From Psilocybe cubensis (taxonomy: Eukaryota): 64,000 nt of DNA. Under the pieces are notes generated by a model. That model ran no database searches. It worked only from the letters and a program-made list of their open reading frames with translations, and was not told the DNA's origin. The stretch covers positions 496,001 to 560,000 of the forward strand of contig CM039007.1 in NCBI GenBank assembly GCA_017499595.2, given 5' to 3'. A program made the position numbers and the translations under genes. Shown here in pieces: positions 1-56,356 of the stretch; position 1 is the stretch's first letter; the number at the start of each line of letters is the position of its first letter.

Positions 1-146
1 ATATCAAATTAAAACGAGAGGCTGTATCTCCACAAGCAGAGACGGAAGCTCCACAGGTAGAAGCGGAAGCCTCTCAACCAACCAAGCGGAAAAAAGCCGT
101 AGCTCCTCGTCGTCCTTCAAAAAAGGCAAAGCAGGATGAATTATGA
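1..146 (+). CDS. 3' end of tyrosine recombinase A (partial)
   Basis: Reads ...IKLKREAVSPQAETEAPQVEAEASQPTKRKKAVAPRRPSKKAKQDEL* (TGA 144-146); same as the end of the complete copy at 12840-16540. Confidence 0.85.
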   Translation, partial: IKLKREAVSPQAETEAPQVEAEASQPTKRKKAVAPRRPSKKAKQDEL

Positions 147-400
147 CTATTAATTGGTATTTTTGACGCTCTTCCTTATGTACTTGACTGTACTAGTTTA
201 TCTTTCATAGTTTGTGTATATTTATGCAGACAGAGTAGCCGCAGACAACCATGATTGTAAAGTTTCAAATAACAAGATAATAATGAATACTTAATGCCGC
301 AGCAGCTATGCAACTTGCTTTCGTTTAAACTCTCCTTTAACTCGTCTTGATTTCAAACACACATCTTGCAATCCAACACAACAATTGCTGCATTTTCAAC

Positions 401-2254
401 ATGGGAATAAATGGACTTTCAAAGGTGCGTACAACGGAATAATGTTAGGTATAGTCTTACAGTGTCAAGATAGGCGATTAAACCCATTGAGGAAAGAGCA
501 TCTCTATACGAGAGTGCCTCTAAGGTTTCTATGGTGGTCCTCTACGAATTCTTTTCATGAAGCTGTGTTACTTTTTAAAGTATCCTGCTATCATGGTCTT
601 TGTGTACGATGGACCGGGACGTCCAGCACTCAAGCGTGGTCGTCGTGTCCAAAATTCTCCACCATTCTGGACAGCTCCCTCTATGGACATAGTACAAGCG
701 TTTGGATATTATGTCCACCAGGTATGCCATAATTTATTCTATTGAATAACACTAGTAGCTAAGTTTTGACGTTGCCTTGTTTAGGCACCCGGTGAGGCTG
801 AGGCCGAGCTTGCTATGCTCAATCAACACGGCCTCCTTGATGCAGTCATCACAAGTGACAGTGATGTTTTTGTGTTTGGAGCGACTACAGTCTATCGCAC
901 GTATGTAGACAATGTTATCAAATTGATTGAATTGGGATTGAAATCATGATAATAGCATCCCGGCCAAAACAAGACGTTTTGAAGATGAAATTGCTGTATA
1001 CACGGCTGAAAACATATCAAATGTTATAGGACTAACAAAGAAAGGTCTCATTTTAGTGGCACTACTTTGTGGAGGAGACTATGACGCAGTAGGACTCGAC
1101 GGATGCGGTCCAGCTACTGCTCTTGGCCTCGCAAAATGCGGATACGGTGAAAGTCTGATTCAAATAGTTCAAACTTTTCACGGAGAGCGATTGACTGCTG
1201 CCATTGCTCAATGGCGTTTGGACCTTCAAAAGGAACTTTTCTCAAACTCCAGTGGACATCTGAGAGGAAAGGAGCGATCACTGGCCAAAAGCATTCCTGA
1301 TTCTTTTCCCAGCCTTGATACACTCTCACTCTACTTGGAACCTGTAGTATCTGCCGGTGCTTCGTCCCATCTTGCTCCTGTTTATGACTTTAGGCACAGA
1401 GAACCATCTTTGAATCGTCTTGTTATGGTGTCATCGACTCATCTGGGGTGGAATACAGAAGAAATTATAAAGGACAAGTTCAAGAGAAATGTATGGGAAG
1501 GTGTCTTTCTGCAGATGCTATACTCGGTGAGTTGTCTATACTACGTTTAAATGCAATCGTAGCTGTTATTCATTGATCTGGCATATTACAGAAGTTTATT
1601 CTTTACGACCACACCCAGCAGATCCTTGCCACACCCAATATTCAAGCACGTTTATTCAACCGTAAAATTGCTAATCGAGCTGGTCGTATGGCACCAAATA
1701 CTTCTAGATACCAAGCCAGATTATTGGTATCGGCACAAAACTTCATCGCATTGATGAACCCCTCATTTCAGTCGTCTACTAATTCGGACACATTTCGAGC
1801 TTGGGTCCATATAGATGCCTTACCGGAAAGATTGCTTCAAGGTTAGTTTTGAGACAAATGGTATTTTCAGCGCTTACATTGACCTCTAGAGCTATCTGGG
1901 GATACTAAAACCACACAAAAAGCTGACAAGTCTCGGGTCATGTTTGTTGAAGGATCTTCTGGAGATAGCAGCCAACAAGCAGCTGCATTTCCAGAGCCAA
2001 CCAAGCATCATCGGGGCGGAATTCTTGAAGCCTTGGACCATATGATGGTAGACCTTGAACATATCAAATTATTGCAGGATATTAATCAATAACGGACTGC
2101 TCAGAAGGGAGAATATGCATCCTCAACTACAAGATCCCTGTTGATTGATCCCAATGTCATCGACTTGACAGAAGATTCTGACCATGAGAAGAGATCTATA
2201 TCTATCCCATCTTCGCTGCCTGAAACTGAATGCTCAATAATTGATTTGACTTAG
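401..2254 (+). pseudogene. XPG/Rad2-family (GEN1/Yen1-like) nuclease of element A, with N-terminal deletion/frameshift
   Basis: Motifs MGINGL, VFVYDGPGRP..KRG, APGEAEAELAMLN, VITSDSDVFVFGA and LLCGGDYD..GLDGCGP (H3TH). Relative to paralogue B, ~154 nt including GVDIS are missing at ~525 and the frame shifts. Ends NVIDLTEDSD...SIIDLT*. Confidence 0.75.
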
Positions 2255-2336
2255 TTATGCTTCCAATATGAAGACACGGACATCATCTTTGCTTGTACCT
2301 AGTCAAAGTAGTATGCATTGACTAATCTACCGTATT

Positions 2337-2400
2337 ACTCTACTGTCTGGTATGCAACTCATGACTTGACTCTACTGTCTGGTATGCAACTCATGACTTG
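2337..2400 (+). repeat. Perfect 32-bp tandem duplication downstream of XPG-A
   Basis: actctactgtctggtatgcaactcatgacttg x2 (2337-2368, 2369-2400). Confidence 0.95.
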
Positions 2401-3957
2401 ATGGTCGGGAAAGGCTTTGATCATATTAATCTGCTTCACTAATCTGCTTTGTTTCGATGAGACTCAATAATCGATGGGCACATTGCAGGGTGCAGGGCAG
2501 AGTGCACAGAAGCAGATGATGATGGAAATGGGATGTGCACACACGGGGTATACTTGCACGACAGAAAAAAGTGGTCCTGCACATAAAGACGGCATTGTAC
2601 AGTACGACTCAACTTAGAATGAGGCCGGTGGGGTATAGCAGTGTAGGAAAGGAAGAGGGTGAAAAACTATGGGCAATCCCAGTGTATTTCCATGCCTGAA
2701 AATTCCTGGGCCACCCATGCGAATTGAGGCACAGTATACCGCAATCTCTCCATCACCAGTCTCCCAGGCATTGATGCCTGAGGGCAGCAATGTATGCGAT
2801 AATATGCGGGGCGGAGCCAACAGTGGGCAGGATGGAGATGTGACAGCGGACGGGGCAGGACGGGGCAGAGGTGATGAGGGGGATACACCACAGAGGAGAA
2901 GAAGGCAGGGGGATCCAACTTGGGTGATAAGAGAAATCGACATACGCACCTAGTGTGTCGATTCCATCAACTGCGCCTTACACCTTGCATGGATCCATCC
3001 CAGCAAAAAAAATTAGAGAGTAGTTAGCACATAAGAAAGGATGAAAGAGAGCCTGCCGGCAACGGTGTATGACCATGCCTGAGGATTCCCAGTGTGCCGG
3101 CAGGCAGAAATAAAAAGAGAGGAAAGAGTGCTCACAGACCTGTATGCTCCCAGCGCGAGCTAAGACCCACGCAATCAAATGTATCTCGCGGGAGGCCACT
3201 GGGATAAACACGGGGGGAAAGTGCAATACAATCACCCATCGCGTGGACATATGTCAGGAAGAACAAAGGAAGAGACTGGACGAGTTTCTGCTTACCTTAC
3301 TCACACACGCAACGCCACCATGCAATGCGGGAGCAAAGTGCGACGCGACACGACGTGATTTGGATGTCGAGTCTCTACCCACAAATACTAGTAAGTTGCT
3401 CACCTTATTTTCTCTTCCTTACCCCACCACCATAGCGCGGGAGATAAGGCCAATATGTACGACGCGACACGACGTGCCGGCCTTCGGGGTGCGTGTTTGG
3501 ATGTCAAGGGCGCCGTGTCGCACTATTTGACGCCCTGCCGCGCGACTTGTGACGCAAGACTGCAGAAACTCCAAAAACAAGGTAGAGTGGCAGAAATAAA
3601 CAAAGAAAATAGATTACTCACGATTGGAGAAGTGTGACGCAAGGGAGAAACACGAATCAACGCGCATTGCATAGAGCTCGCCCCATGCTGAATCGCCTGG
3701 TTGAATCGCATGGTGCCATAATGTCTCTCTCAGCGGTGTCAAATGTACACTCGTACACTCACCTTATTGTCACATTCTATTTCCACCTCTCCTCCACACA
3801 CAATGCCCTTCCTGCAACGCGAAGCGACGCGCAGTCGCGAGAACTCCGCCATCCAAGCGATGCCATGCAAATCGGGTTCGGATGTTCGGATTGGGTCGAG
3901 GGCGGCCGTTCAAGCTACCTATTGAGGCAAAGGACGGCGTCGGGGGTCGAAATTCTT

Positions 3958-4273
3958 GTGACCTGAGCGGTCGAAGTCGCGCCAAACATTGGTGACCTGG
4001 GAGTGACGAGCGGCGAGCGATCGAGGGGCGGGTCCCAGCGAGCGGAATGGAGGTGAAGGGACGAGTAAGAAAACGAAAGGGAAAGTCAACAAAAGCCGCG
4101 GCTGACTCAGCTTAGCTAATCATTCCCGGTGACCCAAAGCGGGTGACCGGGTCCCCAGGTCACAGGGAGTTCGCTATAGAACGAGGAGACCCCAGTGGCC
4201 TTTCTAAGGGTCCGGTCACAAGGGTTTTGTGACCGCCTGCCAAAATTGGCGGGCAGTCACCAGAGTTGGTGAC
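3958..4273. other. Putative recombination (att-like) junction A|B
   Basis: Core GTTC-gctata-GAAC at 4169-4182. GTGAC/GTCAC boxes at 3958, 3992, 4003, 4129, 4143, 4159, 4215, 4229, 4256, 4269. Inverted repeat cggtcacaa-N5-ttgtgaccg at 4213-4235. Confidence 0.8.
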
Positions 4274-5432
4274 TTCGCTAGGGACTCAAAGTGAGCTTTA
4301 TGCCGGTTCGGCGATTGTAAATCAGCCGTGCCTCGCCCTATCTCTACACAAGCTCTGTCAGCGACCACCGCCATCACCATGCCTGTCCCCCCAAACCGTC
4401 CAAGCTCACGTACACAACTGGATTTCTTCGATAAACCGCCGCTCATCAACCCTCAGTTGGCAAGACTCAAGCCAACACCATCTAGACCAACTGCAACACC
4501 GTCTAAACCAACAAGACTGCCAATTCAAACACTAACACGCTTTCAAACGCTAACACGCTCGCCATGCACTCTCAATTCCTATATACCTTCGTTGCTCACA
4601 AGCCCCGCTATAGAGGTGGAGGGTTTGAAACTGCTCACAACGGTGGTCTGAATATAATCAAGTCAGGTACGTTATTCAATATTATGTCGATCCTTCACTT
4701 ATTGATTGTGGAAGCAGCGCAGGCAGCAGTGCTCTTCTTGCACGGCCCTCACTGTCCCACGGACAATCACCGCCCTCTGTGTTTGAGTTGCCATTGCGCA
4801 AACACTGTCTTTTTGGGCATCAGACCCACGGGTGTTCTACTACCCTCGTTCTTGCATCTCAACCATCACATTGTCTTTCCTTGCGCATCTCAAGTCTCAC
4901 GCGCGCTGTGGTGTCTATTTTCTCTCACAAAAGCACACAATCCTGTTGTCGCCATCTTACTGTCTTGTTCAAAGTCGGTTTGGATCACACGTTGGAAAAC
5001 CAGAATTGTCATTGTGAGTATTTCAAGATTCCTCTATTTTTTGACACAGATGCTCAAATGCGACACCAATTAACACCAATAGTTCAGATTGATCACAGCA
5101 CAGATTGCGCGCAGTGTCAATTGAGTACTGCACAGCAGGAACTAGTGGGAATTGAAGGCGGTTGGCATTTTTGGGACGGTCTTGGTTTCTTTTCGTAAAT
5201 CATGTTGCTTTCATTGTATTCTCTACTCACGGGGACCAAATACAACATTTACATCGAATTATAGCTCGGGAATCCAACACAGGCCTCAATTACCATTCAG
5301 GGCATTTGTAATCAACATTCTATGTGCCTTTATTCAACAATGAAACTTGGGCCACCCGTTGAAGCATATAACTTGCATTTTATGTTTTCGCTCTTTCTTA
5401 TTTTTCCTCGCTAACAGCCTGTCTACATACTC

Positions 5433-8400
5433 ATGGATGGTACTTCTTTTGAGCCTGATCCCCTACTTTCTGAACACAATGATTTGCTTTATCCATCCCG
5501 GACCTTGGATGGCACAGTTGTCTCAACTCTTGAAGAGTACTCTGCAGCACTGTATGGTTTCTTTTTCTCAACCAAATTTGACTTGTTGATGTTTCTTTTA
5601 GTGACACTATACGACGGAAAGAGCGTTTGAGGGAAGCATGCAGCAACCTCCATCTTTCAGTCCCTAAAAGTGCTAATTTAGAGCGCCTTCGTTCAGCTCT
5701 CAAATTATACTGGTCGGTATATTTTTCAGTTTGTGGTAGTTGATCCTTTTTATTGACTTCTGTTTGATAGGTTTCCGCTGGATAGCAGTGCCGATACTGC
5801 ACCTACTACTATCAATACTGTGAATGAAGCCACCGAAAATCAAGCTGACATTGAAGATCAACATCTTTCCGCACAATCCCACAATATCATTGACGATGGA
5901 GCTCTTATTTCACACTTTTCGGTTGAAGGTGCAGCAGCTGATGAAATACTAGGATACGACGAGGACAATGAGTTACTTGATGAGGATGATGAATTTGGAG
6001 AAGATCTCGACAACAATGAAGACGACATCATGGATACTAGCGATGACTTTGAACAATTTGTTACTCAGACACGGGTTGACGAGGCTAAAAGATCGGAGAA
6101 AAATCGACGAGCAGGTGGCGTAAAAACACAGTCGGCAGTTGTAAGAGACTGGAAGGTATGGTATCATGTTTTGCTAAAGCTGTACTCAGCTCATGTATTC
6201 TAGATGTTTTGTCGCCAAGCATTGGACAAGGGTGAAATTCAAGATGACATAGTTGACTGTCATCATCTGCTCCTGTATATTCGACATTCAGCAGAGCGTC
6301 CAAAGCGTACTCGCAAGGGTCTTGATATTCCGGGTACTTATCTTGGTGCTGTAAGTTTCACCAGTAACAGATCGTGAACTGTCACTCATACTATCTAGTC
6401 CCAGTTGAAGAAACTCTACTTTGGTGCATTACGGATTCGAAAAATGCAAGAGGCCCTCGATCCAACACTTGAAAAAACTCGGCCCGCTAAGTCTATTCAC
6501 GTTTGGGACTGTATAAAAGGAAGGATGAATGAAGCCTTAAATCGTAGTCGAAAGTGAGTGTTATTTTTTGTATAATCTTGACAGAGTTCTTATCCAGGAA
6601 TCAGTGGCTTAATTCCAGGAGAGGATGCTCCTGATATTGTTGCCAACACGTTTCTGGCAAGTGTAACCGAAGAGCAAATGGCCAAAATAGGTGGAGGGTT
6701 TTTGATGCATCGGGAATGTGAGTTTTTCCATCCAAGACAATTCACTTTGGGTTGAGCTTGATGAGATCTTCCAAGTGCGATCTGTCATTAATGGACATCT
6801 TGCATGGGCAGCCCAAAATGCTTCTGGGAATCGAGGAGACGACTTTCGTGCACTCAAACTTGCGGAACTACAACCATATGTTTTTCTTCACCCCAATAAA
6901 GAAACTGCAGTTGAATGTGTCCTGGGACTTCAAGGCGAAGAGAAAGCTGCTGCTAACCGTGGATTGCGTACAAAAGTTAATCCGGTTTACACAGTATTTA
7001 TTGCACATAAAGATCCAACAATATGCCCGCTTGGTGCCTTTGCGTTTTATCATCATTTCATCCATGATGTAAAGAAGCTTACCGAAGAACTTGATGTTGA
7101 TTGGTCAATCAACAAAAGTTGGAGACAAGTCCGTGTTTTGCATGGCAAGACTTCTCCAACAACCCCTTACCACGAACAGAGTTTGTATAACCTTTACGTC
7201 AAGGCCTTCTCACAGGCCAATTTTATTTCAAAAATCAAGGCTCACCTTCCTCGCCATATTCTTGGTTATAGCCAAGAGAAGATGGGGTAGGTGAACTTGG
7301 TTGAACGTATATCTCAAATCATGATTGTTAACTTGTCAAATCAATTAGCGTCGATGGGGTACACACATCAAGATTGGGATGGGTTCGTGGTGAAACATAC
7401 TTTGATACATACGCTCCAGCAATTCCAAAAGAGGTATTTTTGTTATGACATGTTATGGTTTTTTCTCTTACACCGTTTTCTAGGCCGTTCTCGGTGCTCA
7501 TGGATACAAAACACATGAAGTATATGACCCTCTGTGGCGACGTGTCCATGTTCCAGAGGCATTTTTAAACTTGGTATGCCCTATCGCCGAGGATATTCAT
7601 GCCAAAATTGTGGGAAGAGCCAATTTGTCGGGTGCAGCCAATTATTGGGCAATGGTAATATCGCTCCGCCCATATTTATTCCAGGTTTGCTCTTTGTTAT
7701 CTTTGCTACTCATCACTCATATATATTGTAGTGTGGTGCTGCAATTTACCAGAAGTATCCTGAATCCGCATTATTTCGGCTTCCAGCTTTAGCAAATCCC
7801 CAGGTCCAACACTGGATGAAAACCGAGTATCCAACAAGCCTTGCTCACTTACAAGCTAACGCAGGAAGTACAGTGGATTTGGAACGTATACAAAACAACC
7901 TTCTTCGCCTATCTCTTGAAGAAATGAGGGCGCTTTTAGCAACCCAGGCAGCAGAATTGAAGGAAATGCGTCTTTTAATTCAGCGCCGTACTGATGTTCT
8001 TTCTCCAACCAAGGGATTCTCAAATTTGTCATATCAACATAGTTTAAACGTCTCCAAAGGTATCTTGACTTAACTTGCTATTGATATATTTCTGTGAATT
8101 GATTTTTCAACTATAGTCCCGCAACCTGTATTTACGCTAGCTGTGCCAGAGAGTCCACTGGCTAACAAATCTGCCGGTCATAGTGCTACTAAAAATAGCG
8201 ATGATACGGGAATTTATGTTTTGAATGCTCCAAATGATAGCAAACAACCGGGAAGCCCACTTCGCGCCTTTGCAAATGGATCACCAAAGGTTTCTTCTGA
8301 ATCCCGTTCGCGGACACAAGTTGATCTTGTATTGCCCCATGTTGACGCTTTCTCAAACCCTGGTGTGCCGTCTTATGTTTCTAACACTACTATTGTCTGA

Positions 8401-9150
8401 ATGCTAATAAATCTATGGCCACACATTAGGTGGACCACAACTGTTTTGGCCGCCTGTTCTTGGTCAGAAATCAGTGACGTGGGAGCAAGTCTTTAGACTT
8501 ATCAAGCGACCCGAACTGTTATGGGATGCATGGTGTCCATCAAAGACCCTTAACAAATATACACTCAATGAACAGTGGACATGTTACAATTCTGGCGAGC
8601 CGGTTTTTAATGCTTCGGGTACTCAGACAGGTATCAAGCCTCCACTTCAGCAAGTTGAGCTGCACTTTCAGTCAGCATGGCGAACTAAACCAGCAGTATG
8701 GTTTAATTATCTTTTTCGAGCTGTATACATGGTTTAATCCTTTCCTTTTGTATACTAGGCACGTAAGGCGTGGCAGCGCTTTCGCGAAATTCCGGAGTTT
8801 ATTCATTCCGAGTCTACTTTACGTGGTGTATCCCCACAAATTGTAATCGAAGAGCTTGAAAAATCTGCTACAGGGGGCAATGGCAGAGTGAAGGGACTCT
8901 CAGCAATCACTGATGAAATCTATGCACAACGCATAGCAAAGGCGCAAGCATCAAAAGATGTACGCATATTTTAAAACAAACTTCTGACCACCTCTAAATT
9001 CAATTTTAGGTAATATCTGCTAGTGTTCAAAGCACAAACTCCAATAGCACTCAAAGTGTATCTACAGAGCCGCCCATCGGTAGAAAAAAACGGCAAGCAC
9101 CAGTTGCTCCAAGGAGGCGCACAAAAAATTTAGTTGAACCATCAGCATAG
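5433..9150 (+). CDS. Crypton-type (Ndc10-like) tyrosine recombinase B with C-terminal GCR1_C-like domain, multi-exon
   Basis: GNRGDDFRALKL (R 6832), QGEEKA, CPLGAFAFY, AHLPRH (H 7243, R 7252), SRLGW (W 7380), YFDTYAP (Y 7410). C-terminal TLNEQW...KPPLQQVELHFQSAWR...WQRFREIPEFI...IVIEELE. Short GT-AG introns (e.g. 5552-5601); stop TAG 9148-9150. The start codon is the best guess. Confidence 0.85.
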
Positions 9151-9332
9151 TGTAATCGATGACAGTGTAACCTTACTTAGTAGTATTGAGCCCGCACGTA
9201 ACTTAGTTTGAGAAGTCTCATAATACAATGGTCATACTCTTATATCAACAATCCAATCTGAGTTATTTGACATCTCTTTTATCCATACACACAACACAGC
9301 GGCAAATCACATTGACAAGTTGATAATTGACA

Positions 9333-11148
9333 ATGGGAATTAATGGGTTATGGCCAGTAAGAACCATTCAATGTCATGTCTGAGTCTTGGTGTGCTGAGT
9401 TGGCTACTACAGACAATCAAAGAAGCGGAAAGCAGGATCTCAATTCTCTCTACTGCTCTTGACCATCGAGAGAGTTCCGGAAAAATTGCGATGAAGCTTG
9501 GGGTTGATATAAGGTATTTCATGGTTTAAAATTTTGATCTATTAGTCTTAATTAGAATCAAAAGCACACTTATGAGCGAGTGTGTTGCAGCACTACAGGG
9601 ACCAACAATCAGTGGCCAATTCTATGGCGGTGCACTGCACATTCTATTCATGAAAATGTGTGAATTCATCAAATATCCCTTGACTCTAGTATTTGTTTAT
9701 GATGGCCCTGGTCGACCTCTCATAAAACGCGGGACTAATGTTCGTGTAAACCAAAGCCCATTTTGGACCAATCCATCTAAAGATATCATTCGGGCATTCG
9801 GATATCACATACACCAGGTATTGCATGCTGTCTGTGTAATTGTATTTAATATTAACTCCAAAATAGGCGCCCGGAGAGGCTGAAGCGGAATTAGCTATGC
9901 TAAACCGTAGAGGATTGATTGATGGAATCATCACTAACGATAGTGATGTTTTTGTCTTTGGCGCACAAACAGTATACCGCACGTAAGAACATTCTTCAAA
10001 CTTGCTCAGTATACTGGATATTGAACATCAAATTTTATTAGCATTCCAACCAAGGAAAGACATTTTGAAGATGAAATGATTGCCTACACGTACTCGCATC
10101 TTTTGGATTTAGGATTAACATCCGGTGGACTTGTTTTATTTGCCCTAGTCTGTGGTGGCGATTACGATTGCGCGGGTCTCAAAGGATTTGGGCCGTCCCA
10201 TGCACATGCTCTTGCATCGTGCGGATTTGGGGATCAGCTTGTCAAAGCATTCCAGACGTTAAGCGGTGTTGCTCTTCAGGATTTTCTCAACCACTGGCGC
10301 ACAGAAATCAAGCATGAATTATTGACAAATTCCCATGGCCATCTACATAGCCGTTCACCTGTCCTGTCCGAACGTCTCACAGAATCTTTCCCCGACCTTG
10401 ACATTCTTGATCTTTACTTGAATCCACTAACTTCTGCCCCAGGTCAAAAATTTCAACCGTGGATTTTACAAGAGCCATCAGTTCCCGGCCTAATTGATGT
10501 TTCGTCGACACACTTGGGATGGCGATCCGAGGATGTACTCAGGAAAAGGTTCAAAGCCAAGGTTTGGGAGGGTATTTTTCTTCAAATGCTTTATTCTGTA
10601 AGTCATCTATTCACATTTACGAGTGCAAAACAAGGTCTCATGCTGCTTCTAGCCCCTCATATTATACGACTCTTCCCGGAAACTTTTCGCTACGCCAAAT
10701 ACCCAAGCTTTGGTTCTGACCTGTAAATTGCTCAAGCGCAAAGGCTGTGTACAACCCAACGCTTCAGAGTTACATGCCCGATTGCTTGTGTCGGCTCAGA
10801 ACTTCGTCACATTGATGGGTTTCCACTCAAACCAATCCAATGAGGTTGACCAATTTCGAGTCTGGGTTCCTCGGAGTATTTTGCCCCAGGAGTTACATAC
10901 TACAGTCGAAGGTAGTTTTATCTAACTGACCTACACATTGTATACTACTAACCACTTGCTCAGGTTCTCAATCCGTAACAAGAATGAAGATAAATCCCAG
11001 TCGAAGGCGCAGACCCAGCAGCAGCAGCTCCACGATGGAAGAACAAAACAATTCCATTCGGCATTTTGAGGTCATTGATTTGACTGACGAGACCGAGGTC
11101 TCGAACATTCAATCTACATCCAATGTTATTGATCTGACTCAGGATTAA
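9333..11148 (+). CDS. XPG/Rad2-family PIN + H3TH nuclease (GEN1/Yen1-like) of element B, multi-exon, apparently intact
   Basis: MGINGLWP, LGVDIS, VFVYDGPGRPLIKRG, APGEAEAELAMLN, IITNDSDVFVFGA, LVCGGDYDCAGLKGFGP; ends FEVIDLTDETEVSNIQSTSNVIDLTQD*. Confidence 0.88.
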
Positions 11149-12202
11149 TTCTGGCTTCAACAGACGTAGCAAGTATGTAACAGCGTAGAAAAGTAACAAA
11201 GAGTAGTGATTAATGTACACAAGGAATTATTTGATTATTTGAAAGCGAGGTCTGCAGTGGTACAGCACAGAATTTCTACCAGATAAACGCTAGCGGTGAA
11301 CGTCTGAGCATTGGGGAGGGGAAGGGGGTGTAGGACTGTTAACTCACAAAAACAATATGCCACTCTACTGCTCAGAAACAACGCCACACCTAAAAGCTAA
11401 CCTCACCGCCAATCACGGTTGATGGCTGGTAACAACTGGCGTGCAGGCATTATAGAGTCTTCTTTCAGGGATAGACAAATGTGACTCCTCCGCATCCATG
11501 ATGGCGGCAGCGTTGGAGTTGTTCAGCATCTCGTGTAGGAGCACAAGCTGGCGATGGCAGAGATTGTGGCGATCCGTGGACGCGCGCCACGACGTAGATC
11601 TCTCTAAGTGGCAACAAAATTCTTCAACTATATTAAACCAGAAAAAGAAAGAAAAACGAACGCACGCTCAACATTGTTCGCAAACTCTCGCACCATACCC
11701 AAATCCCTCCATAGCCACACAAACACACCACCCAGAAACATAAAGAATTTGAAAGCAAGGTCTTCTGTAACACATGGATATGATAAATGTTAGCGGCACA
11801 TGGGAGGAAGAGGAAACTCACAAAAAATAATACAAACAATGCCGCCCAAAAGCTAACCCCCACAAACATCCTTGGGGTCAAGCCTACAATGCAGCGGAGG
11901 CGTACATTAGCCAGTGGGCGAGAAGATATGGGATTAACATCGTTAGATTGTCAGCAGCATTAGTAAAAAGTATACAGTGGAGTTAAAAGAACACCGGGTG
12001 GTAGGCAGTGAGTGTATGACCATGCCTGATCATTCCTCAGCTCCCATCCACCAGTGCACGGAGAAGGGGGGTAGAGCGAGCAAAAAAATGAACAGAGAAC
12101 ACTCACGTTTTGCGCAGATCGGCCGCTCGAATCCAACAAGGAAAGCGGGTGCCCGTGAGCACACGTATTTGGGAATTGACGGCGTTGGGGGACGAAATTG
12201 TT

Positions 12203-12540
12203 GTGACCGGAGCGGAGGTCGACCAGCGAAAAGCTGGTGACCGGAGAGTGACGAGCGGCGAGCGATCGAGGGCGGGTCCCAGCGCGATGAGTTAGCAGGA
12301 GGCGGGAATGAAGGGGAGTGAGGCAGAATGAAGGTGGAGGTCAACGAAAGATCAGATTCGCGGGAGTATTACATAATCATTATCTAAGCAGTCCGGTGAC
12401 TCGCCGCGGTGACGGCGTCCCCAAGTCACAGGGAGTTCGCTATAGAACAAGGAGACCCCCGTGGCATTCCTTGGGGGTAGGTCACAGACGTTCTGTGACC
12501 TACCGCACAAATTTGGCCCTGGGTCACAGAGCTGGGTGAC
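12203..12540. other. Putative recombination (att-like) junction B|A
   Basis: Core at 12435-12448. Boxes at 12203, 12237, 12248, 12396, 12409, 12425, 12481, 12495, 12523, 12536. Perfect 13-bp-arm inverted repeat ggtaggtcacaga-cgt-tctgtgacctacc at 12476-12504. Confidence 0.8.
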
Positions 12541-12839
12541 TTTCACTGAGGCATTCAGTGAGCATCGCGACCTGCACCGGACAACTGCGGGTATGTGCCG
12601 CCATTGATTTTTGTCTGTGGCCTCTAGTGGCACTGGCCAATATGCGCACAACACCGGTCAAACTCATGAGTGCCATTCAACGTGAAATGACCGGTTATTT
12701 TCTTTTGGTGAGTGTCCATTCTCCATCGCTCCAGTGGCCCATCGTTGAAATCACCTAGTACAACATAATAAAAGAATGTACTCTATAAGATGTCTTATGA
12801 ATATACATTTTCCCCCACCAAATTTTTCTGAGTAAACCA

Positions 12840-15800
12840 ATGCAGTCTCGCATACTATCTCGCACCGAGTCTTCTGAGCAAGCTCAACATGCTGAAATTA
12901 TGATCCCTACGACCGACGCCAATGGTATTATCAACATATCCCGCGCTCAGTACATGTCTAGGCTAGCTGCTATACGACGGAAAGAGCCACTTCGCGAAGC
13001 ATGTATTGATGCTAATTTGGCACCACCTAAGAGTGCAAATTTAGAGCGTCTTCGAACGATGTTGACGGACTACTGGTATGTGGCACACTTTATACACTCT
13101 TATTTCTATATGCTTAGTGTGTTTTTTGGGTCGCGTTAACAGGTATCCTCCAATTGTCATGGAGGAATCAATTTCTAATGAAGTTTCTGAGCTACAATCT
13201 TCTAGCTCGCAACATGCTAGCACATCAGTTTCCGTGTTGAGAGATAATAACGACGAAATCCTTGTTCAAGAATTTGGGGTTGAAGGTGCTGCTGCTGAAG
13301 AGGTTCTTGGGTACGATGATGATAGTGATAGTGACCCTGAGGATGAATTTCGAGAGGTTCTTGAGATCAACGATGAGCTCCTAGACCACACAGCCCTCGA
13401 AGACGACGATGAATCTGACTTGGAGACTCAAATGCAAGGTGGACCATTTCCAGGCGAAAGTTACACCAAATTTCAAACTCGGATCCGGCTCGAGGAGACA
13501 AGACGTGCAGAGAATAATCGACGAGCAGGTGGAGTTAAGACTCAAAGTGCGGTTATCAAAGATTGGAAGGTCATTCATTGGCTGTCTCTATGTATACACA
13601 TTCCAAATCTAACTTGAATATCTTTCAGATCTTTTGTGGTCATGCCTTGAAGACGGGTCAAATCAAAGATGAAATTGTTGATGCCCACCATCTATTATTG
13701 TATATTCGGTACTGTTCCGAGCGACCAAAGCGAACACGCAAAGGCATTGACATACCTGGTACATTTATTGGCGCGGTAAGTCCTGATATTAGTGTATCAG
13801 ATGACGTATAAAACTTACATTGATTCTCAGTCACACATTAAGAAACTATATTTTGGTGCTCTTCGTATCCGTAAAGAGCAAGAAGCCAAAGACCCCAGTC
13901 TTTCCCAGCGGCGCCCAGCAACCAATGTCCATGTTTGGGATGCACTTAAAGGTCGTATGAATGAAGCTCTTCGACGGGCTCGAGAGTCTGTTTCTTTTTA
14001 ATCTGCTACACTGATTATAAGTTGCTAATTCCATGTCATCAGAGGCCTCATACCCGAAGAGGACGCGCCGGACATTGTGGCCAATACATTTCTCTCCGGA
14101 ATCACAGAAGCGCAGATGAACAGTGTTGGAAAAGGCTTTCTTATGCATCGAGAGTGTGAGTAACTTTTTGAATACTTTGGTGTAATAATTTGACAATGTT
14201 TTCTAGTACGTTCGGTTATCAATGGTCATTTGAGCTGGACTGCACAAAATGCATCAGGAAACCGTGGGGATGATTTCCGAGCGCTTCGACTGGCTGAGCT
14301 GCAGCCATATGTCTTTCTTCATCCAAATAAAGAGACGGCCATTCCGTGTGTTCTCGGATGTCAAGGAGAGGAGAAGGCAGGTGCTAGCAGAGGAATGAGA
14401 ACGGTAAATTTAAGCTCTCAATTCACTTGTTCCTATCTGATATATTATCTACACTATTCAGAAAGTTAATCCGGTGTATAGTGTATTTATTGCCCACCTG
14501 GATCCAGTTAAATGCCCACTGGGAGCATTTGCTTTTTATCATCATTTCCTTCACGACGTCATTGATATCACCTCAGCATTAGATATCAACTGGTCGATCA
14601 ATAAAACCTGGCGACAAGTACGTGTTCTACATGGCAAAAAGTCATATGCGACTCCATACCATGAGCAAAGCCTGTACAATCTCTATGTTAAGGCATTTTC
14701 CTCTGCTGCATTCACATCACATTTGAAAGCACATCTACCACGTCATATCCTTGGATATAATCAAGAGCGCATGGGGTAAGCTCAAATGTATTTAGTTAAA
14801 TGCTTAATGACTTATTTCAATTCAGTGTTGATCCCTCTGTAACATCTCGGATGGGATGGGTACGAGGAGAGACTTATTATGATACCTATGCACCGGCACT
14901 TCCAAAAGAGGTAAACTTTCCCCTTCATTATCCCAAAACCTACTAACTGACTGTGCACGTATTAGGCTGTACTCGGTGCACATGGATATAAATCTCATGA
15001 GGTGTATGACCCCATTTGGCGTCATGTTCACATCCCCGAGGTATTTCTGTGTCTTGTATGCCCAATGGCTGAAACAATCTATTCAGATGTTGTTGGACGA
15101 CAAAATCTGTCTGGTGCCGCAAACTACTGGTCAATGGTTATGGAGCTACGTCCCTATCTGTTCCAGGTAAGAACTTTGTTAATTGTACAGTGTTGTATTA
15201 ATGTTATACTTTAGTGTGGTGCTGCCATCTTTCAAGAAGTACCAGAATCAGCATTATTTCGGCTTCCGGCCTTTGCTCATCAAGATGTCCAGAATTGGAT
15301 GAAGCACCAGTTTCCAAACGATTTTTCTTTGTTGAAAGCGAGTGCAGGAAGCAGGGTTGATCTCCAGCGGATCCAGAATCAGCTCCTTCAGCTTGCCCTT
15401 GAAGAAACCCGATCATTACTTGCATCACAAAGTGTTCAATTAGCTGAAGTTGCTCGAATTCAGAAGATAGTTGAGCAGCGTACTCAAGTGTTATCACCGG
15501 CAAAGGGATATTCAGCAGTCCACTACTCGTCTAGAGTGTCTACAGCATCATCGGGTGTGTCACATAGCTGTTTCATGTCGTGTTTAATATTTATTGACCT
15601 CTTTTCTTAGCTGCAGTTCATGAGCCACTTCCTGCTCTGCAGCTCACAACAGCCAATCATGACACATTTGAAAGTGCTAACTGTGAAAACGACGACACCG
15701 GTGTGTATATGGCTGAAAATGGGGATTTCCGAGCATTTGCAAATGGATCTCCAAAAACCCCAACACATACCATTCGCCGGAAGCGTTCACAGGTTGATTT

Positions 15801-16540
15801 AGTGCTACCGAGTGCGTCTGCTTTCACAGAACAGGGTAGGTTATCACCTTTACCATATATATGTTTGCTAAATACAAATTTGTGAATACAGGTCAGCCAC
15901 AATTCTTTTGGCCTCCGGTCTTTGGACAGAAATCTGTGACATGGGACCAAGTATTTGCTCTTATCAAGCAACCCGAGCATTTATGGGACTGCTGGAAGCC
16001 ATCAAAGACACTTGATAAATATGATCTTCACGATCAATGGGCGTGCTGGAGTGTTGGTGAGGGGGTAAATGATGCAGATGGTAATCAGACATCTGTCAAG
16101 CCGCCTCTACGTGAGGTGGAACGTCATTTCGGATCATTCAATCCGGAGGGTAAGCATCTCAAAAGTTGGCGAAGCGGAATTTCATCCAAAGTAAGGAAAT
16201 TTGACATTTATATCAATTCAAGGACTTACAGAAAGCATAGGACCGCAAATTCTGGCAGCGGTTTCGAGAAATTCCTGAGTTTATTGACTCAGAAGCTCAT
16301 AACCGCAAGGTCTCTCCACTCTCAATTATTGATGAACTTGAGATTCTAGGCCAGCAAGACAGACGATTAAAGGGACTTTCAGCACTTACAAAGCATATCA
16401 AATTAAAACGAGAGGCTGTATCTCCACAAGCAGAGACGGAAGCTCCACAGGTAGAAGCGGAAGCCTCTCAACCAACCAAGCGGAAAAAAGCCGTAGCTCC
16501 TCGTCGTCCTTCAAAAAAGGCAAAGCAGGATGAATTATGA
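12840..16540 (+). CDS. Crypton-type tyrosine recombinase A with GCR1_C-like domain, multi-exon
   Basis: WTAQNASGNRGDDFRALRLAELQ, QGEEKA, CPLGAFAFY, AHLPRH, SRMGW, YYDTYAPALPK. C-terminal LHDQW...KPPLREVERHFG...WR...WQRFREIPEFI. Exons through the catalytic domain splice in frame with GT-AG introns. Confidence 0.87.
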
Positions 16541-16794
16541 CTATTAATTGGTATTTTTGACGCTCTTCCTTATGTACTTGACTGTACTAGTTTATCTTTC
16601 ATAGTTTGTGTATATTTATGCAGACAGAGTAGCCGCAGACAACCATGATTGTAAAGTTTCAAATAACAAGATAATAATGAATACTTAATGCCGCAGCAGC
16701 TATGCAACTTGCTTTCGTTTAAACTCTCCTTTAACTCGTCTTGATTTCAAACACACATCTTGCAATCCAACACAACAATTGCTGCATTTTCAAC

Positions 16795-18648
16795 ATGGGA
16801 ATAAATGGACTTTCAAAGGTGCGTACAACGGAATAATGTTAGGTATAGTCTTACAGTGTCAAGATAGGCGATTAAACCCATTGAGGAAAGAGCATCTCTA
16901 TACGAGAGTGCCTCTAAGGTTTCTATGGTGGTCCTCTACGAATTCTTTTCATGAAGCTGTGTTACTTTTTAAAGTATCCTGCTATCATGGTCTTTGTGTA
17001 CGATGGACCGGGACGTCCAGCACTCAAGCGTGGTCGTCGTGTCCAAAATTCTCCACCATTCTGGACAGCTCCCTCTATGGACATAGTACAAGCGTTTGGA
17101 TATTATGTCCACCAGGTATGCCATAATTTATTCTATTGAATAACACTAGTAGCTAAGTTTTGACGTTGCCTTGTTTAGGCACCCGGTGAGGCTGAGGCCG
17201 AGCTTGCTATGCTCAATCAACACGGCCTCCTTGATGCAGTCATCACAAGTGACAGTGATGTTTTTGTGTTTGGAGCGACTACAGTCTATCGCACGTATGT
17301 AGACAATGTTATCAAATTGATTGAATTGGGATTGAAATCATGATAATAGCATCCCGGCCAAAACAAGACGTTTTGAAGATGAAATTGCTGTATACACGGC
17401 TGAAAACATATCAAATGTTATAGGACTAACAAAGAAAGGTCTCATTTTAGTGGCACTACTTTGTGGAGGAGACTATGACGCAGTAGGACTCGACGGATGC
17501 GGTCCAGCTACTGCTCTTGGCCTCGCAAAATGCGGATACGGTGAAAGTCTGATTCAAATAGTTCAAACTTTTCACGGAGAGCGATTGACTGCTGCCATTG
17601 CTCAATGGCGTTTGGACCTTCAAAAGGAACTTTTCTCAAACTCCAGTGGACATCTGAGAGGAAAGGAGCGATCACTGGCCAAAAGCATTCCTGATTCTTT
17701 TCCCAGCCTTGATACACTCTCACTCTACTTGGAACCTGTAGTATCTGCCGGTGCTTCGTCCCATCTTGCTCCTGTTTATGACTTTAGGCACAGAGAACCA
17801 TCTTTGAATCGTCTTGTTATGGTGTCATCGACTCATCTGGGGTGGAATACAGAAGAAATTATAAAGGACAAGTTCAAGAGAAATGTATGGGAAGGTGTCT
17901 TTCTGCAGATGCTATACTCGGTGAGTTGTCTATACTACGTTTAAATGCAATCGTAGCTGTTATTCATTGATCTGGCATATTACAGAAGTTTATTCTTTAC
18001 GACCACACCCAGCAGATCCTTGCCACACCCAATATTCAAGCACGTTTATTCAACCGTAAAATTGCTAATCGAGCTGGTCGTATGGCACCAAATACTTCTA
18101 GATACCAAGCCAGATTATTGGTATCGGCACAAAACTTCATCGCATTGATGAACCCCTCATTTCAGTCGTCTACTAATTCGGACACATTTCGAGCTTGGGT
18201 CCATATAGATGCCTTACCGGAAAGATTGCTTCAAGGTTAGTTTTGAGACAAATGGTATTTTCAGCGCTTACATTGACCTCTAGAGCTATCTGGGGATACT
18301 AAAACCACACAAAAAGCTGACAAGTCTCGGGTCATGTTTGTTGAAGGATCTTCTGGAGATAGCAGCCAACAAGCAGCTGCATTTCCAGAGCCAACCAAGC
18401 ATCATCGGGGCGGAATTCTTGAAGCCTTGGACCATATGATGGTAGACCTTGAACATATCAAATTATTGCAGGATATTAATCAATAACGGACTGCTCAGAA
18501 GGGAGAATATGCATCCTCAACTACAAGATCCCTGTTGATTGATCCCAATGTCATCGACTTGACAGAAGATTCTGACCATGAGAAGAGATCTATATCTATC
18601 CCATCTTCGCTGCCTGAAACTGAATGCTCAATAATTGATTTGACTTAG
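16795..18648 (+). pseudogene. XPG/GEN1-like nuclease of element A copy 2 (same lesion as 401-2254)
   Basis: Repeat of 401-2254 at +16394. Confidence 0.75.
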
Positions 18649-18730
18649 TTATGCTTCCAATATGAAGACACGGACATCATCTTTGCTTGTACCTAGTCAA
18701 AGTAGTATGCATTGACTAATCTACCGTATT

Positions 18731-18794
18731 ACTCTACTGTCTGGTATGCAACTCATGACTTGACTCTACTGTCTGGTATGCAACTCATGACTTG
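18731..18794 (+). repeat. 32-bp tandem duplication (second copy)
   Basis: Repeat of 2337-2400 at +16394. Confidence 0.95.
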
Positions 18795-20351
18795 ATGGTC
18801 GGGAAAGGCTTTGATCATATTAATCTGCTTCACTAATCTGCTTTGTTTCGATGAGACTCAATAATCGATGGGCACATTGCAGGGTGCAGGGCAGAGTGCA
18901 CAGAAGCAGATGATGATGGAAATGGGATGTGCACACACGGGGTATACTTGCACGACAGAAAAAAGTGGTCCTGCACATAAAGACGGCATTGTACAGTACG
19001 ACTCAACTTAGAATGAGGCCGGTGGGGTATAGCAGTGTAGGAAAGGAAGAGGGTGAAAAACTATGGGCAATCCCAGTGTATTTCCATGCCTGAAAATTCC
19101 TGGGCCACCCATGCGAATTGAGGCACAGTATACCGCAATCTCTCCATCACCAGTCTCCCAGGCATTGATGCCTGAGGGCAGCAATGTATGCGATAATATG
19201 CGGGGCGGAGCCAACAGTGGGCAGGATGGAGATGTGACAGCGGACGGGGCAGGACGGGGCAGAGGTGATGAGGGGGATACACCACAGAGGAGAAGAAGGC
19301 AGGGGGATCCAACTTGGGTGATAAGAGAAATCGACATACGCACCTAGTGTGTCGATTCCATCAACTGCGCCTTACACCTTGCATGGATCCATCCCAGCAA
19401 AAAAAATTAGAGAGTAGTTAGCACATAAGAAAGGATGAAAGAGAGCCTGCCGGCAACGGTGTATGACCATGCCTGAGGATTCCCAGTGTGCCGGCAGGCA
19501 GAAATAAAAAGAGAGGAAAGAGTGCTCACAGACCTGTATGCTCCCAGCGCGAGCTAAGACCCACGCAATCAAATGTATCTCGCGGGAGGCCACTGGGATA
19601 AACACGGGGGGAAAGTGCAATACAATCACCCATCGCGTGGACATATGTCAGGAAGAACAAAGGAAGAGACTGGACGAGTTTCTGCTTACCTTACTCACAC
19701 ACGCAACGCCACCATGCAATGCGGGAGCAAAGTGCGACGCGACACGACGTGATTTGGATGTCGAGTCTCTACCCACAAATACTAGTAAGTTGCTCACCTT
19801 ATTTTCTCTTCCTTACCCCACCACCATAGCGCGGGAGATAAGGCCAATATGTACGACGCGACACGACGTGCCGGCCTTCGGGGTGCGTGTTTGGATGTCA
19901 AGGGCGCCGTGTCGCACTATTTGACGCCCTGCCGCGCGACTTGTGACGCAAGACTGCAGAAACTCCAAAAACAAGGTAGAGTGGCAGAAATAAACAAAGA
20001 AAATAGATTACTCACGATTGGAGAAGTGTGACGCAAGGGAGAAACACGAATCAACGCGCATTGCATAGAGCTCGCCCCATGCTGAATCGCCTGGTTGAAT
20101 CGCATGGTGCCATAATGTCTCTCTCAGCGGTGTCAAATGTACACTCGTACACTCACCTTATTGTCACATTCTATTTCCACCTCTCCTCCACACACAATGC
20201 CCTTCCTGCAACGCGAAGCGACGCGCAGTCGCGAGAACTCCGCCATCCAAGCGATGCCATGCAAATCGGGTTCGGATGTTCGGATTGGGTCGAGGGCGGC
20301 CGTTCAAGCTACCTATTGAGGCAAAGGACGGCGTCGGGGGTCGAAATTCTT

Positions 20352-20667
20352 GTGACCTGAGCGGTCGAAGTCGCGCCAAACATTGGTGACCTGGGAGTGA
20401 CGAGCGGCGAGCGATCGAGGGGCGGGTCCCAGCGAGCGGAATGGAGGTGAAGGGACGAGTAAGAAAACGAAAGGGAAAGTCAACAAAAGCCGCGGCTGAC
20501 TCAGCTTAGCTAATCATTCCCGGTGACCCAAAGCGGGTGACCGGGTCCCCAGGTCACAGGGAGTTCGCTATAGAACGAGGAGACCCCAGTGGCCTTTCTA
20601 AGGGTCCGGTCACAAGGGTTTTGTGACCGCCTGCCAAAATTGGCGGGCAGTCACCAGAGTTGGTGAC
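20352..20667. other. Putative recombination junction A|B (second copy)
   Basis: Core GTTCGCTATAGAAC at 20563-20576; same as the 4169 junction. Confidence 0.8.
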
Positions 20668-21826
20668 TTCGCTAGGGACTCAAAGTGAGCTTTATGCCGG
20701 TTCGGCGATTGTAAATCAGCCGTGCCTCGCCCTATCTCTACACAAGCTCTGTCAGCGACCACCGCCATCACCATGCCTGTCCCCCCAAACCGTCCAAGCT
20801 CACGTACACAACTGGATTTCTTCGATAAACCGCCGCTCATCAACCCTCAGTTGGCAAGACTCAAGCCAACACCATCTAGACCAACTGCAACACCGTCTAA
20901 ACCAACAAGACTGCCAATTCAAACACTAACACGCTTTCAAACGCTAACACGCTCGCCATGCACTCTCAATTCCTATATACCTTCGTTGCTCACAAGCCCC
21001 GCTATAGAGGTGGAGGGTTTGAAACTGCTCACAACGGTGGTCTGAATATAATCAAGTCAGGTACGTTATTCAATATTATGTCGATCCTTCACTTATTGAT
21101 TGTGGAAGCAGCGCAGGCAGCAGTGCTCTTCTTGCACGGCCCTCACTGTCCCACGGACAATCACCGCCCTCTGTGTTTGAGTTGCCATTGCGCAAACACT
21201 GTCTTTTTGGGCATCAGACCCACGGGTGTTCTACTACCCTCGTTCTTGCATCTCAACCATCACATTGTCTTTCCTTGCGCATCTCAAGTCTCACGCGCGC
21301 TGTGGTGTCTATTTTCTCTCACAAAAGCACACAATCCTGTTGTCGCCATCTTACTGTCTTGTTCAAAGTCGGTTTGGATCACACGTTGGAAAACCAGAAT
21401 TGTCATTGTGAGTATTTCAAGATTCCTCTATTTTTTGACACAGATGCTCAAATGCGACACCAATTAACACCAATAGTTCAGATTGATCACAGCACAGATT
21501 GCGCGCAGTGTCAATTGAGTACTGCACAGCAGGAACTAGTGGGAATTGAAGGCGGTTGGCATTTTTGGGACGGTCTTGGTTTCTTTTCGTAAATCATGTT
21601 GCTTTCATTGTATTCTCTACTCACGGGGACCAAATACAACATTTACATCGAATTATAGCTCGGGAATCCAACACAGGCCTCAATTACCATTCAGGGCATT
21701 TGTAATCAACATTCTATGTGCCTTTATTCAACAATGAAACTTGGGCCACCCGTTGAAGCATATAACTTGCATTTTATGTTTTCGCTCTTTCTTATTTTTC
21801 CTCGCTAACAGCCTGTCTACATACTC

Positions 21827-25544: not shown

Positions 25545-25726
25545 TGTAATCGATGACAGTGTAACCTTACTTAGTAGTATTGAGCCCGCACGTAACTTAG
25601 TTTGAGAAGTCTCATAATACAATGGTCATACTCTTATATCAACAATCCAATCTGAGTTATTTGACATCTCTTTTATCCATACACACAACACAGCGGCAAA
25701 TCACATTGACAAGTTGATAATTGACA

Positions 25727-56222: not shown

Positions 56223-56356
56223 TTGTAACGTTTCGCGAATGTTCGAGGAAAATAGATGTTCTATACAGGTAACTTTATAGTCCTTCGAGTACAGCTACAG
56301 ATATAAAGTGTGTGTGTGTGAGGTGTAGCTTCGTCAAAATGGTCAATCAATGTTGC

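Follow-up and report, generated by a model that had tools for sequence, protein, structure and literature searches.

A tandem array of Crypton-like elements in Psilocybe cubensis that pair a tyrosine recombinase gene with a GEN1-like nuclease gene

In this study, we analysed a 64,000-nucleotide stretch of the Psilocybe cubensis genome (assembly GCA_017499595.2, contig CM039007.1, positions 496,001 to 560,000; hereafter the window, with coordinates counted from its first base). The window opens within a tandem array, B-A-B-A, of two diverged units of about 8.2 kb, elements A and B, each of which carries a tyrosine recombinase gene followed by a gene for a GEN1-like nuclease. Self-comparison by BLAST revealed that 1-12455 recurs at 16395-28850 with 99.992% identity over 12456 columns, and the sole divergence between these two 12.4 kb repeats lies at the very end of the repeat. 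Because of this repeat, the window can be read as the tail of one B unit, then A, B, a second A copy (A') and finally unrelated DNA. Element A (4183-12448, 8266 bp) is a complete unit bounded by the first two of the core sites described below, and its second copy A' (20577-28842) shows no difference from it across their common length. Element B (12449-20576, 8128 bp) is diverged from A. The B piece at 1-4182, which comprises the nuclease gene and 3' region of another copy, is identical to 16395-20576; as the repeat alignment begins at base 1, the array extends leftward beyond the window. All these features, and those below unless stated otherwise, lie on the forward strand.

The boundaries of the units are marked by a 15-mer, AGTTCGCTATAGAAC, which occurs exactly four times in the window, always on the forward strand and once per unit boundary. 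By exact match and junction alignment, core site 1 (4168-4182) lies at the B-to-A junction and core site 2 (12434-12448) at the A-to-B junction. Core site 3 (20562-20576), also an exact match, lies at the B-to-A' junction, where reads from another strain break at 20572 and 20576. Core site 4 (28828-28842), again an exact match, forms the right array end: likeness to the A-to-B junction stops at 28850 and unrelated flank follows, so that the array ends no more than 8 bp past the fourth core. Each core sits within a junction of about 350 bp that is common to A and B with 73% identity. Around core 1, this attachment region spans 3933-4275 (aligned to 12178-12542) and includes the conserved left end GAGACCCC. 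Junctions are rich in GTGAC motifs (10 per 400 bp, compared with 1.7 per kb window-wide), which are paired as GTGACC-N9-GGTCAC, and the same arm motifs are present in relatives from metagenomes. Scans of the window for tRNAs and Rfam families gave no match, and the core corresponds to no RNA gene known to them.

Outside the junctions, A and B share little at the DNA level: besides the attachment region, a segment at 7481-7834 is 72% identical to 14963-15317. At the protein level, tblastx showed them to be collinear over about 5 kb of coding sequence, including the recombinase (5600-8860 versus 12970-16340) and the nuclease (9333-10895 versus 16795-18228). Between the two elements synonymous sites are saturated, and nonsynonymous divergence (dN) reaches 0.22 over 591 recombinase codons and 0.37 over 344 nuclease codons; since the synonymous divergence (dS) is saturated, no dN/dS ratio is given. 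With dS saturated and dN at these values, purifying selection has acted on both genes during most of the time since A and B separated.

The first gene of each unit encodes the recombinase. In element A, it is a multi-exon gene at 5433-8974, placed by tblastn with the protein P0001 and by Pfam, with its stop at 8974. In element B, it lies at 12828-16540 with open exons and a stop at 16540, as placed by tblastn with the protein P0006 and by segment translations. P0001 is a P. cubensis gene model of 1448 aa (98% identical), which was found using the 233-aa exon 10025-10726 as query and spans A from 5433 to 11148 in tblastn. Pfam detected NDC10_II in the exon 6706-7290 (3.5e-9), and in P0001 it found NDC10_II (3.3e-8), XPG_I (8.1e-19) and GCR1_C (4.3e-4); the last of these scored 21 bits, under the 23-bit cutoff. 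GCR1_C is above the cutoff in the relative P0131 (32.4 bits), and PF12550 (GCR1_C) is present in the precomputed annotation of 9 of 90 recombinase relatives. A Pfam scan of the open reading frames (ORFs) with 70 aa or more in A and in the B 3' region revealed no reverse transcriptase; it returned NDC10_II for the exon 6706-7290 and two matches far under the cutoffs (Sec2p and YqhR).

Both A and B keep the R-K-H-R-W-Y catalytic pattern of tyrosine recombinases. Among 83 aligned relatives (P0001 numbering), R376, K413 and H513 are each kept in 78, R516 in 79, W538 in 81 and Y544/Y548 in 72/73. A phmmer search of P0001 against the PDB gave no match to the recombinase part at E <= 0.01, and an AlphaFold2 (AF2) model of P0006, confident in its core and with a mean pLDDT of 73, had Ndc10 (E 5e-7), Flp (8e-4) and Cre (1e-3) as its best folds. 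The recombinase is thus of the Crypton type.

The second gene encodes the nuclease. In element A, it spans 9333-11148, with its own start (MGINGLWP) and a GTAAGA splice donor; the end at 11148 follows the P0001 model, and the stop would be at 10925 if the last intron were unspliced. Element A keeps all the acidic motifs (GVD, FVYDG, GEAEAE, NDSD and GGDY), which align to the same motifs in the GEN1 structure 5cnq; within them we take certain residues to be the metal-binding ones. In element B, the gene lies at 16795-18240 and has a 163-bp deletion relative to A; the remainder is open and keeps FVYDG, GEAEAE, SDSD and GGDY. Pfam found no match for single nuclease exons and XPG_N stayed below threshold for the element nucleases; the family is visible only in full-length relatives. 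Against the PDB, phmmer matched the nuclease part of P0001 best to GEN1 entries (5cnq/6grb, E 7e-33), followed by Rad2 (5e-15) and human GEN1 (4e-14), and the matched entries are titled Holliday junction-resolving enzyme GEN1 in the fold search.

An AF2 model was examined for P0002, a Pholiota member of the nuclease clade (pLDDT 94). Its best match was GEN1 6grd (Z 33.4, rmsd 2.9, 395 residues), in which model residues 2-457 align to chain residues 2-465, and XPG, Rad2 and FEN1 followed with Z of 24-27, most of them reaching only to about residue 360. As the P0002 model aligns end to end with 6grd, the nuclease clade probably has the C-terminal domain of GEN1; the C-terminus of the A nuclease aligns to P0002 residues 382-448 at only E 0.001. 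By sequence and modelled fold, therefore, the element nuclease is GEN1-like.

The two genes are co-oriented, and 20 gene models, including P0001 of UniProt, join them into one protein, so one might ask whether recombinase and nuclease are translated as a fusion. Their close spacing agrees with this: in A, 358 bp separate the recombinase stop (8974) from the nuclease ATG (9333), and in B the distance is 254 bp (16540 to 16795). Nevertheless, a fused protein seems very improbable to us. In-frame stops at 8974 and 16540 end the recombinase, P0006, a B-like recombinase, has a gene model of its own that finishes at the stop of B, and the nuclease has its own ATG with the family N-terminus MGI..LW, which the fused model skips. 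Moreover, the spacing reaches 1929 bp elsewhere, and stand-alone nucleases of 350-540 aa are common. Because of the stops, the separate annotation of P0006 and the nuclease ATG, P0001 is read as an annotation artefact that covers two separate genes.

An earlier note, made from the letters of this DNA, had described A and B as sharing one layout (core, recombinase, nuclease, core), and the four exact cores and the collinear tblastx alignment bear this out. Its gap of roughly 180-255 bp between the genes has to be corrected to the distances given above. Its description of the enzymes as a Crypton-type recombinase and a GEN1/Yen1-like nuclease agrees with NDC10_II, with the catalytic pattern in 72-81 of the 83 relatives, with the microhomology at the ends described below, with GCR1_C in P0131 and in 9 of 90 rows, and with GEN1 as the best match of the nuclease in sequence and fold. 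Among the domains it expected, NDC10_II and XPG_I were found, GCR1_C is sub-threshold in P0001 and XPG_N did not reach the Pfam threshold.

To place the element nucleases relative to the GEN1 of the host, a full-library search was performed with P0002, which returned 4415 proteins at E <= 0.001, including 471 at E <= 1e-30. Long matches with an N-terminal nuclease carried XPG_N, XPG_I and GEN1_C in five of eight cases scanned, and a local GEN1_C profile marked 50 such long proteins, none of which had a recombinase. In a FastTree phylogeny of 159 nuclease domains, 45 of 48 GEN1_C rows formed one clade (support 98). All 13 linked nucleases fell into a separate group of 68 rows (support 86) that contained no GEN1_C row and included short proteins annotated as 'PIN domain-like'; the A and B nucleases were sisters (support 98). 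Canonical GEN1 was found across Agaricomycetes, and in Galerina marginata and Mycena sp. CBHHK59/15 it occurs in the same species as a fused element model. Because of the separate clade and this co-occurrence, the element nuclease is best regarded as a GEN1-like paralogue and not as the host gene. Nucleases of the element clade are short (mostly 350-560 aa), compared with 800-1400 aa for host GEN1.

One further protein deserves mention here. P0237 of Crepidotus variabilis (1357 aa) has N-terminal XPG_N and XPG_I domains and a weak Phage_integrase match at 953-1045 (22.6 bits, under the cutoff), and falls into a group that is sister to the element nucleases. Here a nuclease and a tyrosine recombinase may be paired in another way, in the opposite order.

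The linkage of the two genes was then examined beyond P. cubensis. A search with the recombinase part yielded 90 relatives of 796-2534 aa, from many Agaricales and several per genome. Eighteen of these also hold a nuclease by local phmmer, always C-terminal to the recombinase; with P0194 (phmmer) and P0131 (Pfam), fused models total 20, recombinase first and nuclease second, from seven genera (Psilocybe, Gymnopilus, Galerina, Mycena, Favolaschia, Rhodocollybia and Ephemerocybe). NDC10_II, GCR1_C and XPG_I were the only domains in the fused models. Independently of gene models, a scan of metagenomes gave 74 recombinase loci, of which 16 were informative, i.e. the recombinase C-terminus was reached and at least 1500 bp followed downstream. 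In 11 of these 16, a nuclease lies on the same strand, 181-1929 bp downstream. Four additional loci (L039, L042, L056 and L073) show a downstream nuclease and fell outside the criteria, owing to too little downstream sequence or, in L042, to a shortened recombinase; the other 54 were uninformative.

The trees of recombinase and nuclease for 13 linked pairs were largely congruent. Groups common to both were (A,B), (P0009,P0072), (P0026,P0047) and (P0033,P0080,P0194) with P0083 outside, and P0065 and P0071 were placed differently or unresolved between the two. A third conserved gene was sought by tblastx of the 3' regions of locus L037, A and B, in which only the arms matched, and the remaining ORFs of the two elements gave nothing credible in Pfam. 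What is conserved between families is the arms and the two genes only. Many distinct copies occur per genome, such as 10 clusters in Mycena leptocephala and 10 clusters plus P0194 in Favolaschia claudopus. Thus, the linkage of recombinase and nuclease is general, with exceptions that are considered below.

The ends of the unit could be mapped in the metagenome loci. Exact direct repeats of at least 13 bp flanking the gene pair were sought in nine long loci, which gave three 14-mers; two were dropped, and only that of L037 led to real ends. In L037, L042, L044 and L046, the 10-mer GCTATAGAAC lies on the forward strand downstream of the nuclease, at a distance of 1.7-2.2 kb. An arm common to these loci (GTGACC..GGTCAC..GGGAGCCC) comes before the 10-mer, and the sequences after it are unrelated between the four. 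L001 contains a fifth match, on the opposite strand and with no adjoining arm. The left end, GAGACCCC(G/A)(A/G)TGGTATTCCC..., was found in L037, L042, L038, L048 and L050 behind five unrelated flanks, which end in GGAAC (three of five) or GGACC (two of five) plus three bases; the element right end reads ...TATAGAAC. L037 is a complete unit of 9657 bp with both genes between the mapped ends, and L042, at 6730 bp, is a derivative whose recombinase is shortened. Recombinases of the loci with mapped ends are 43-57% identical to the query P0006 over the best segment, and their end and arm motifs match those of A and B. The unit hence consists of a left arm beginning with GAGACCCC, the recombinase gene, a separate nuclease gene, a variable 3' region and a right arm ending in GCTATAGAAC.

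Sequencing runs of other strains revealed differences at this locus. In the raw reads of run X13, A has a depth of about 41-49 and the flank one of about 29-41, compared with 0 for the B body (12668-18670) and next to none for the B 3' region. X13 reads have loose ends at 20531, 20572 and 20576, the latter two inside the core, and the read breakpoints share AGAAC. The strain sequenced as X13 therefore has A and is without B. Weaker, contig-based evidence comes from run X11, in which contigs begin to match the flank at 28839 and do not include A. Shared ends in different flanks, together with this strain polymorphism, show that the element is mobile.

On the other hand, the two 12.4 kb copies carry no difference and the left array end lies outside the window, as might be seen with a host tandem gene cluster or a repeat created by assembly. 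That the units are not mobile is nonetheless hardly credible, given the same ends of relatives in four right and five left flanks, the X13 raw reads with A and without B, and the numerous distinct copies in the genomes of M. leptocephala and F. claudopus.

Several other observations were made in the reads of these runs. At the loose ends at 20576 (run X7) and 28843 (run X11), the same right arm and core lead into ATCTGTTTCCCAAGAGAATTAGTGATACAT, a sequence that belongs to none of A, B and the window flank, and in X13 as many as 112 reads over 20552 carry a G>A change, well above the A depth; further elements or sites appear to share the core. A few X13 reads (3 and 6) in 12203-12237 and 28597-28631 have a joint that goes back 34 bases between GTGACC motifs 34 bp apart in the right arm, which suggests that this 34-bp repeat varies in copy number. 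Short pieces of the B 3' region (19073-19104 and 19512-19554) occur in X13 and X11, two strains that lack B, where 27-47 reads support loose ends at either side; they look like fragments of another dispersed repeat.

We are highly confident that A and B represent a mobile Crypton-like element with a conserved GEN1-like gene. The view of the earlier note that the nuclease is a core component and not chance cargo has gained support from the fused models of seven genera, the 11 loci, the congruent trees and the presence of both genes inside the ends of L037. The homologues proved to be linked, multi-copy and located in different flanks, and in the phylogeny with host GEN1 the element nucleases stand as a clade of their own.

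How such an element might move can be outlined as follows. The joined arms form an attachment site, with the GTGACC-N9-GGTCAC pairs as presumed binding sites of the recombinase. The recombinase would excise the unit as a circle, in which the right arm is joined to the left arm as in the B-to-A and A-to-B junctions. The circle would then insert either at a short target that resembles GGAAC/GGACC or beside a resident element, at its end, and the latter would build tandem arrays such as B-A-B-A. The microhomology between the element (...AGAAC) and the target (GGAAC or GGACC) amounts to about 4-5 bp. After the recombinase has carried out the first strand-exchange pair, branch migration through non-identical DNA would fail; with so short a shared stretch, and with imperfect targets in two of five cases, it should stall. 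The nuclease would be a minimal GEN1, consisting of the core and a chromodomain-like domain and lacking the long host tail, and this tail-less enzyme would then cut the stalled Holliday junction.

On balance, we lean towards A and B being diverged members of a CryptonF-like DNA transposon family of gilled mushrooms that moves by site-specific recombination, with the nuclease cutting the Holliday junction. Taken by itself, Holliday junction resolution as the role of the nuclease seems quite possible, short of probable. We propose more tentatively that a widespread, unrecognised mushroom transposon superfamily uses a two-enzyme mechanism, in which exchange of one strand pair at 4-5 bp of GAAC microhomology would be followed by a cut by a tail-less, unregulated GEN1.

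A number of observations weigh against this reading. The deletion in the B nuclease takes out the GVD segment, which holds the first catalytic Asp, and the sole open path joins MGINGLSKVR to FYGG via an intron at 16823-16918, skipping about 47 residues; the claim of the earlier note that both elements carry an XPG-family nuclease thus stands for A with all its motifs, and for B fails at this residue. Decayed copies also occur in metagenome loci, such as L015, in which K replaces the first Glu of GEAEAE, and L001, in which the XPG_I region is broken. Because B, L015 and L001 are damaged, an intact nuclease would not be needed in every copy, if trans-complementation is assumed. Of the informative loci, L009, L026 and L072 (3/16) have no nuclease even at E up to 1, and L032 and L052 (2/16) have it on the opposite strand. 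A full-length GEN1 fold was seen for P0002, which is 34-41% identical to the A nuclease and is not among the nucleases shown to be linked, and Pfam GEN1_C was found in 0 of 20 linked nucleases. The nuclease tree is a FastTree with SH-like supports only, and its key split has a support of 86. Two probable RNA runs gave no recombinase contigs and a nuclease exon depth below 10. Finally, GEN1-family enzymes also cut 5' flaps, so that the fold does not single out Holliday junctions.

In the two opposite-strand loci, the nuclease lies upstream of the recombinase in L032 (4-1060, reverse strand) and downstream in L052 (2218-3036, reverse strand). These could be neighbouring elements or a different arrangement.

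The last of the points above leads to another possible role, in which the nuclease acts as a 5'-flap or fork endonuclease on intermediates that arise when the excised circle or the donor site is replicated or repaired, for example in replicative amplification that gives arrays. The FEN1/XPG/GEN1 fold is a common one, as the Z values of 24-27 to XPG, Rad2 and FEN1 indicate, 5'-flap cutting belongs to what is generally known of this family, and amplification could produce the perfect B-A-B-A repeat. However, the best sequence and fold match is to GEN1 specifically and includes the C-terminal domain absent from XPG, Rad2 and FEN1, integration at the end of a resident element also explains arrays, and the Pfam ORF scans of A and the B 3' region found no replication gene in the element. 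We consider a flap role unlikely.

The nuclease might instead be long-lived cargo without a part in transposition, either beneficial to the host or a selfish DNA-repair paralogue that travels along. The three loci without nuclease and the several copies with a damaged nuclease and a still open recombinase would fit such a passenger, and the known Cryptons covered by the part of Kojima and Jurka (2011; PMC3212892) available to us do without such a gene. Yet order, strand and close spacing are alike in the seven genera and the 11 of 16 loci, the gene trees are congruent, purifying selection has acted since the A/B split, and the nuclease is the only gene besides the recombinase that is conserved between families. 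It is still less probable than a flap role that the nuclease is such cargo, and a nuclease that takes part in transposition as a junction-cutting enzyme remains the reading we prefer.

Apart from the two genes, the A 3' region gives rise to a spliced transcript of the minus strand (11151-12274, copy 27545-28668), which was recovered in contigs of runs X7 and X8 on the A' copy. Its introns of 58, 62, 57 and 223 nt are all GT..AG on the minus strand, and it starts within the right arm and is abundant (contig depth 261-683 in X7 and X8). The longest ORF is about 88 aa without a Pfam match, and no conservation was seen in B or L037. This transcript is convergent with the nuclease gene and may be a regulatory or non-coding RNA.

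The flank beyond A' carries pieces of zf-MYND-like, ABC and MFS genes. Tandem diverged repeats lie at 29675-33460 (29675-30568 versus 31173-32070, 80%), with ORFs that have weak zf-MYND matches; because X13 and X11 show a joint that goes back 1453-1456 bases, from about 32000 to 30545, the number of these repeats differs between strains. Further to the right, 56347-58209 and 59682-61559 form a direct duplication with 76% identity that includes an MFS-transporter-like ORF, and 37072-37527 and 55722-56177 are an inverted repeat pair (71%).

Of the classes of DNA transposons in eukaryotes, Cryptons are the least understood, and their insertion at sites that share only 4-6 bp is an open question. 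If the proposed mechanism is true, the element would be the first transposon of eukaryotes to bring a structure-selective resolvase of its own, and this would explain how Cryptons insert with so little homology. A GEN1-type nuclease retained beside the recombinase provides a concrete hypothesis for bench work, in which the ends, the target and the attachment site are all defined. Studies of junction resolution also gain natural minimal GEN1 enzymes, about 450 aa long. Many proteins annotated in Agaricales as 'XPG-I domain-containing' or 'PIN domain-like', as well as the fused models, are explained by the family, and a large transposon-borne clade of GEN1 paralogues matters for counts of DNA-repair genes.

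Mobile genomes that encode their own Holliday junction nuclease are known from phages and viruses, including RusA and Rap of lambdoid phages, T4 endonuclease VII and poxvirus A22. The elements described here would resemble them in this respect, and in lambdoid phages the nuclease even occurs beside a tyrosine integrase. However, the folds of RusA, Rap, endonuclease VII and A22 are unrelated to that of the element nuclease, these enzymes serve replication and packaging and not integration, and we know of none that belongs to a eukaryotic transposon. A second parallel is the integration of CTX phage, in which XerC acts alone and the junction is resolved by the host. The likeness would be limited to the proposed logic, with one strand-exchange pair made by the recombinase and the junction finished by another activity; in contrast to this bacterial system, which relies on host replication, the mushroom element would bring its own resolvase.

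Starships carry a DUF3435 tyrosine recombinase, the 'captain', with accessory or cargo genes, and have short direct repeats from target microhomology, according to the part of the source available to us (PMC13465315). Like them, A and B are DNA elements of fungi that are moved by a tyrosine recombinase, carry an extra gene and have microhomology direct repeats. They differ in that the recombinase has NDC10_II/GCR1_C and not DUF3435, the unit measures 7-10 kb and not tens to hundreds of kb, the hosts found here are Agaricomycetes, and there is one fixed accessory gene in place of variable cargo.

With regard to the nuclease, the element enzymes resemble GEN1/Yen1 (5cnq, 5co8 and 6grb-d; human GEN1 5t9j) as the best sequence and fold match, with the seven-acidic-residue core kept in A, and the modelled clade member aligns over the whole solved structure, including what appears to be the chromodomain-like C-terminal part. 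Unlike GEN1/Yen1, they form a short, separate clade without the tail of 400-900 aa and without a GEN1_C detectable by Pfam. Unlike host GEN1, they are multi-copy and transposon-borne, occur beside the canonical gene and are known here from sequence.

The last comparison is with the fungal Cryptons, which were reportedly described by Goodwin et al. in 2003. The second genes of Cryptons named in the parts of two papers available to us are a DDE transposase (MarCry), a C48 peptidase and an HTH protein only (PMC13465315, from 2026; PMC3212892). A pairing of a Crypton with a nuclease (XPG, flap endonuclease, GEN1 or Holliday junction) was not found in the searchable literature, a search outside which lay Repbase, Dfam and the element list of PMC3212892; as the earlier note had suspected, the pairing appears undescribed. 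According to the sections of Kojima and Jurka (2011; PMC3212892) at hand, CryptonF elements have a tyrosine recombinase with R-H-R-Y and a GCR1_C-type C-terminus, no terminal inverted or long repeats, and short terminal direct repeats that reflect target microhomology, and a circular intermediate has been proposed. A and B share with CryptonF the catalytic R-H-R-Y (plus K and W), the lack of terminal inverted repeats and long terminal repeats, the short microhomology repeats at the ends, the absence of a reverse transcriptase and, in a related family, copies at different genomic sites; GCR1_C is sub-threshold in P0001, which stands in for A, and above the cutoff in P0131. The CryptonF-like assignment is based on domains, catalytic residues and ends. 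In contrast to CryptonF, A and B have a conserved second gene for a GEN1-like nuclease and an attachment region of about 350 bp with repeated GTGACC, and they form tandem arrays at each other's ends.

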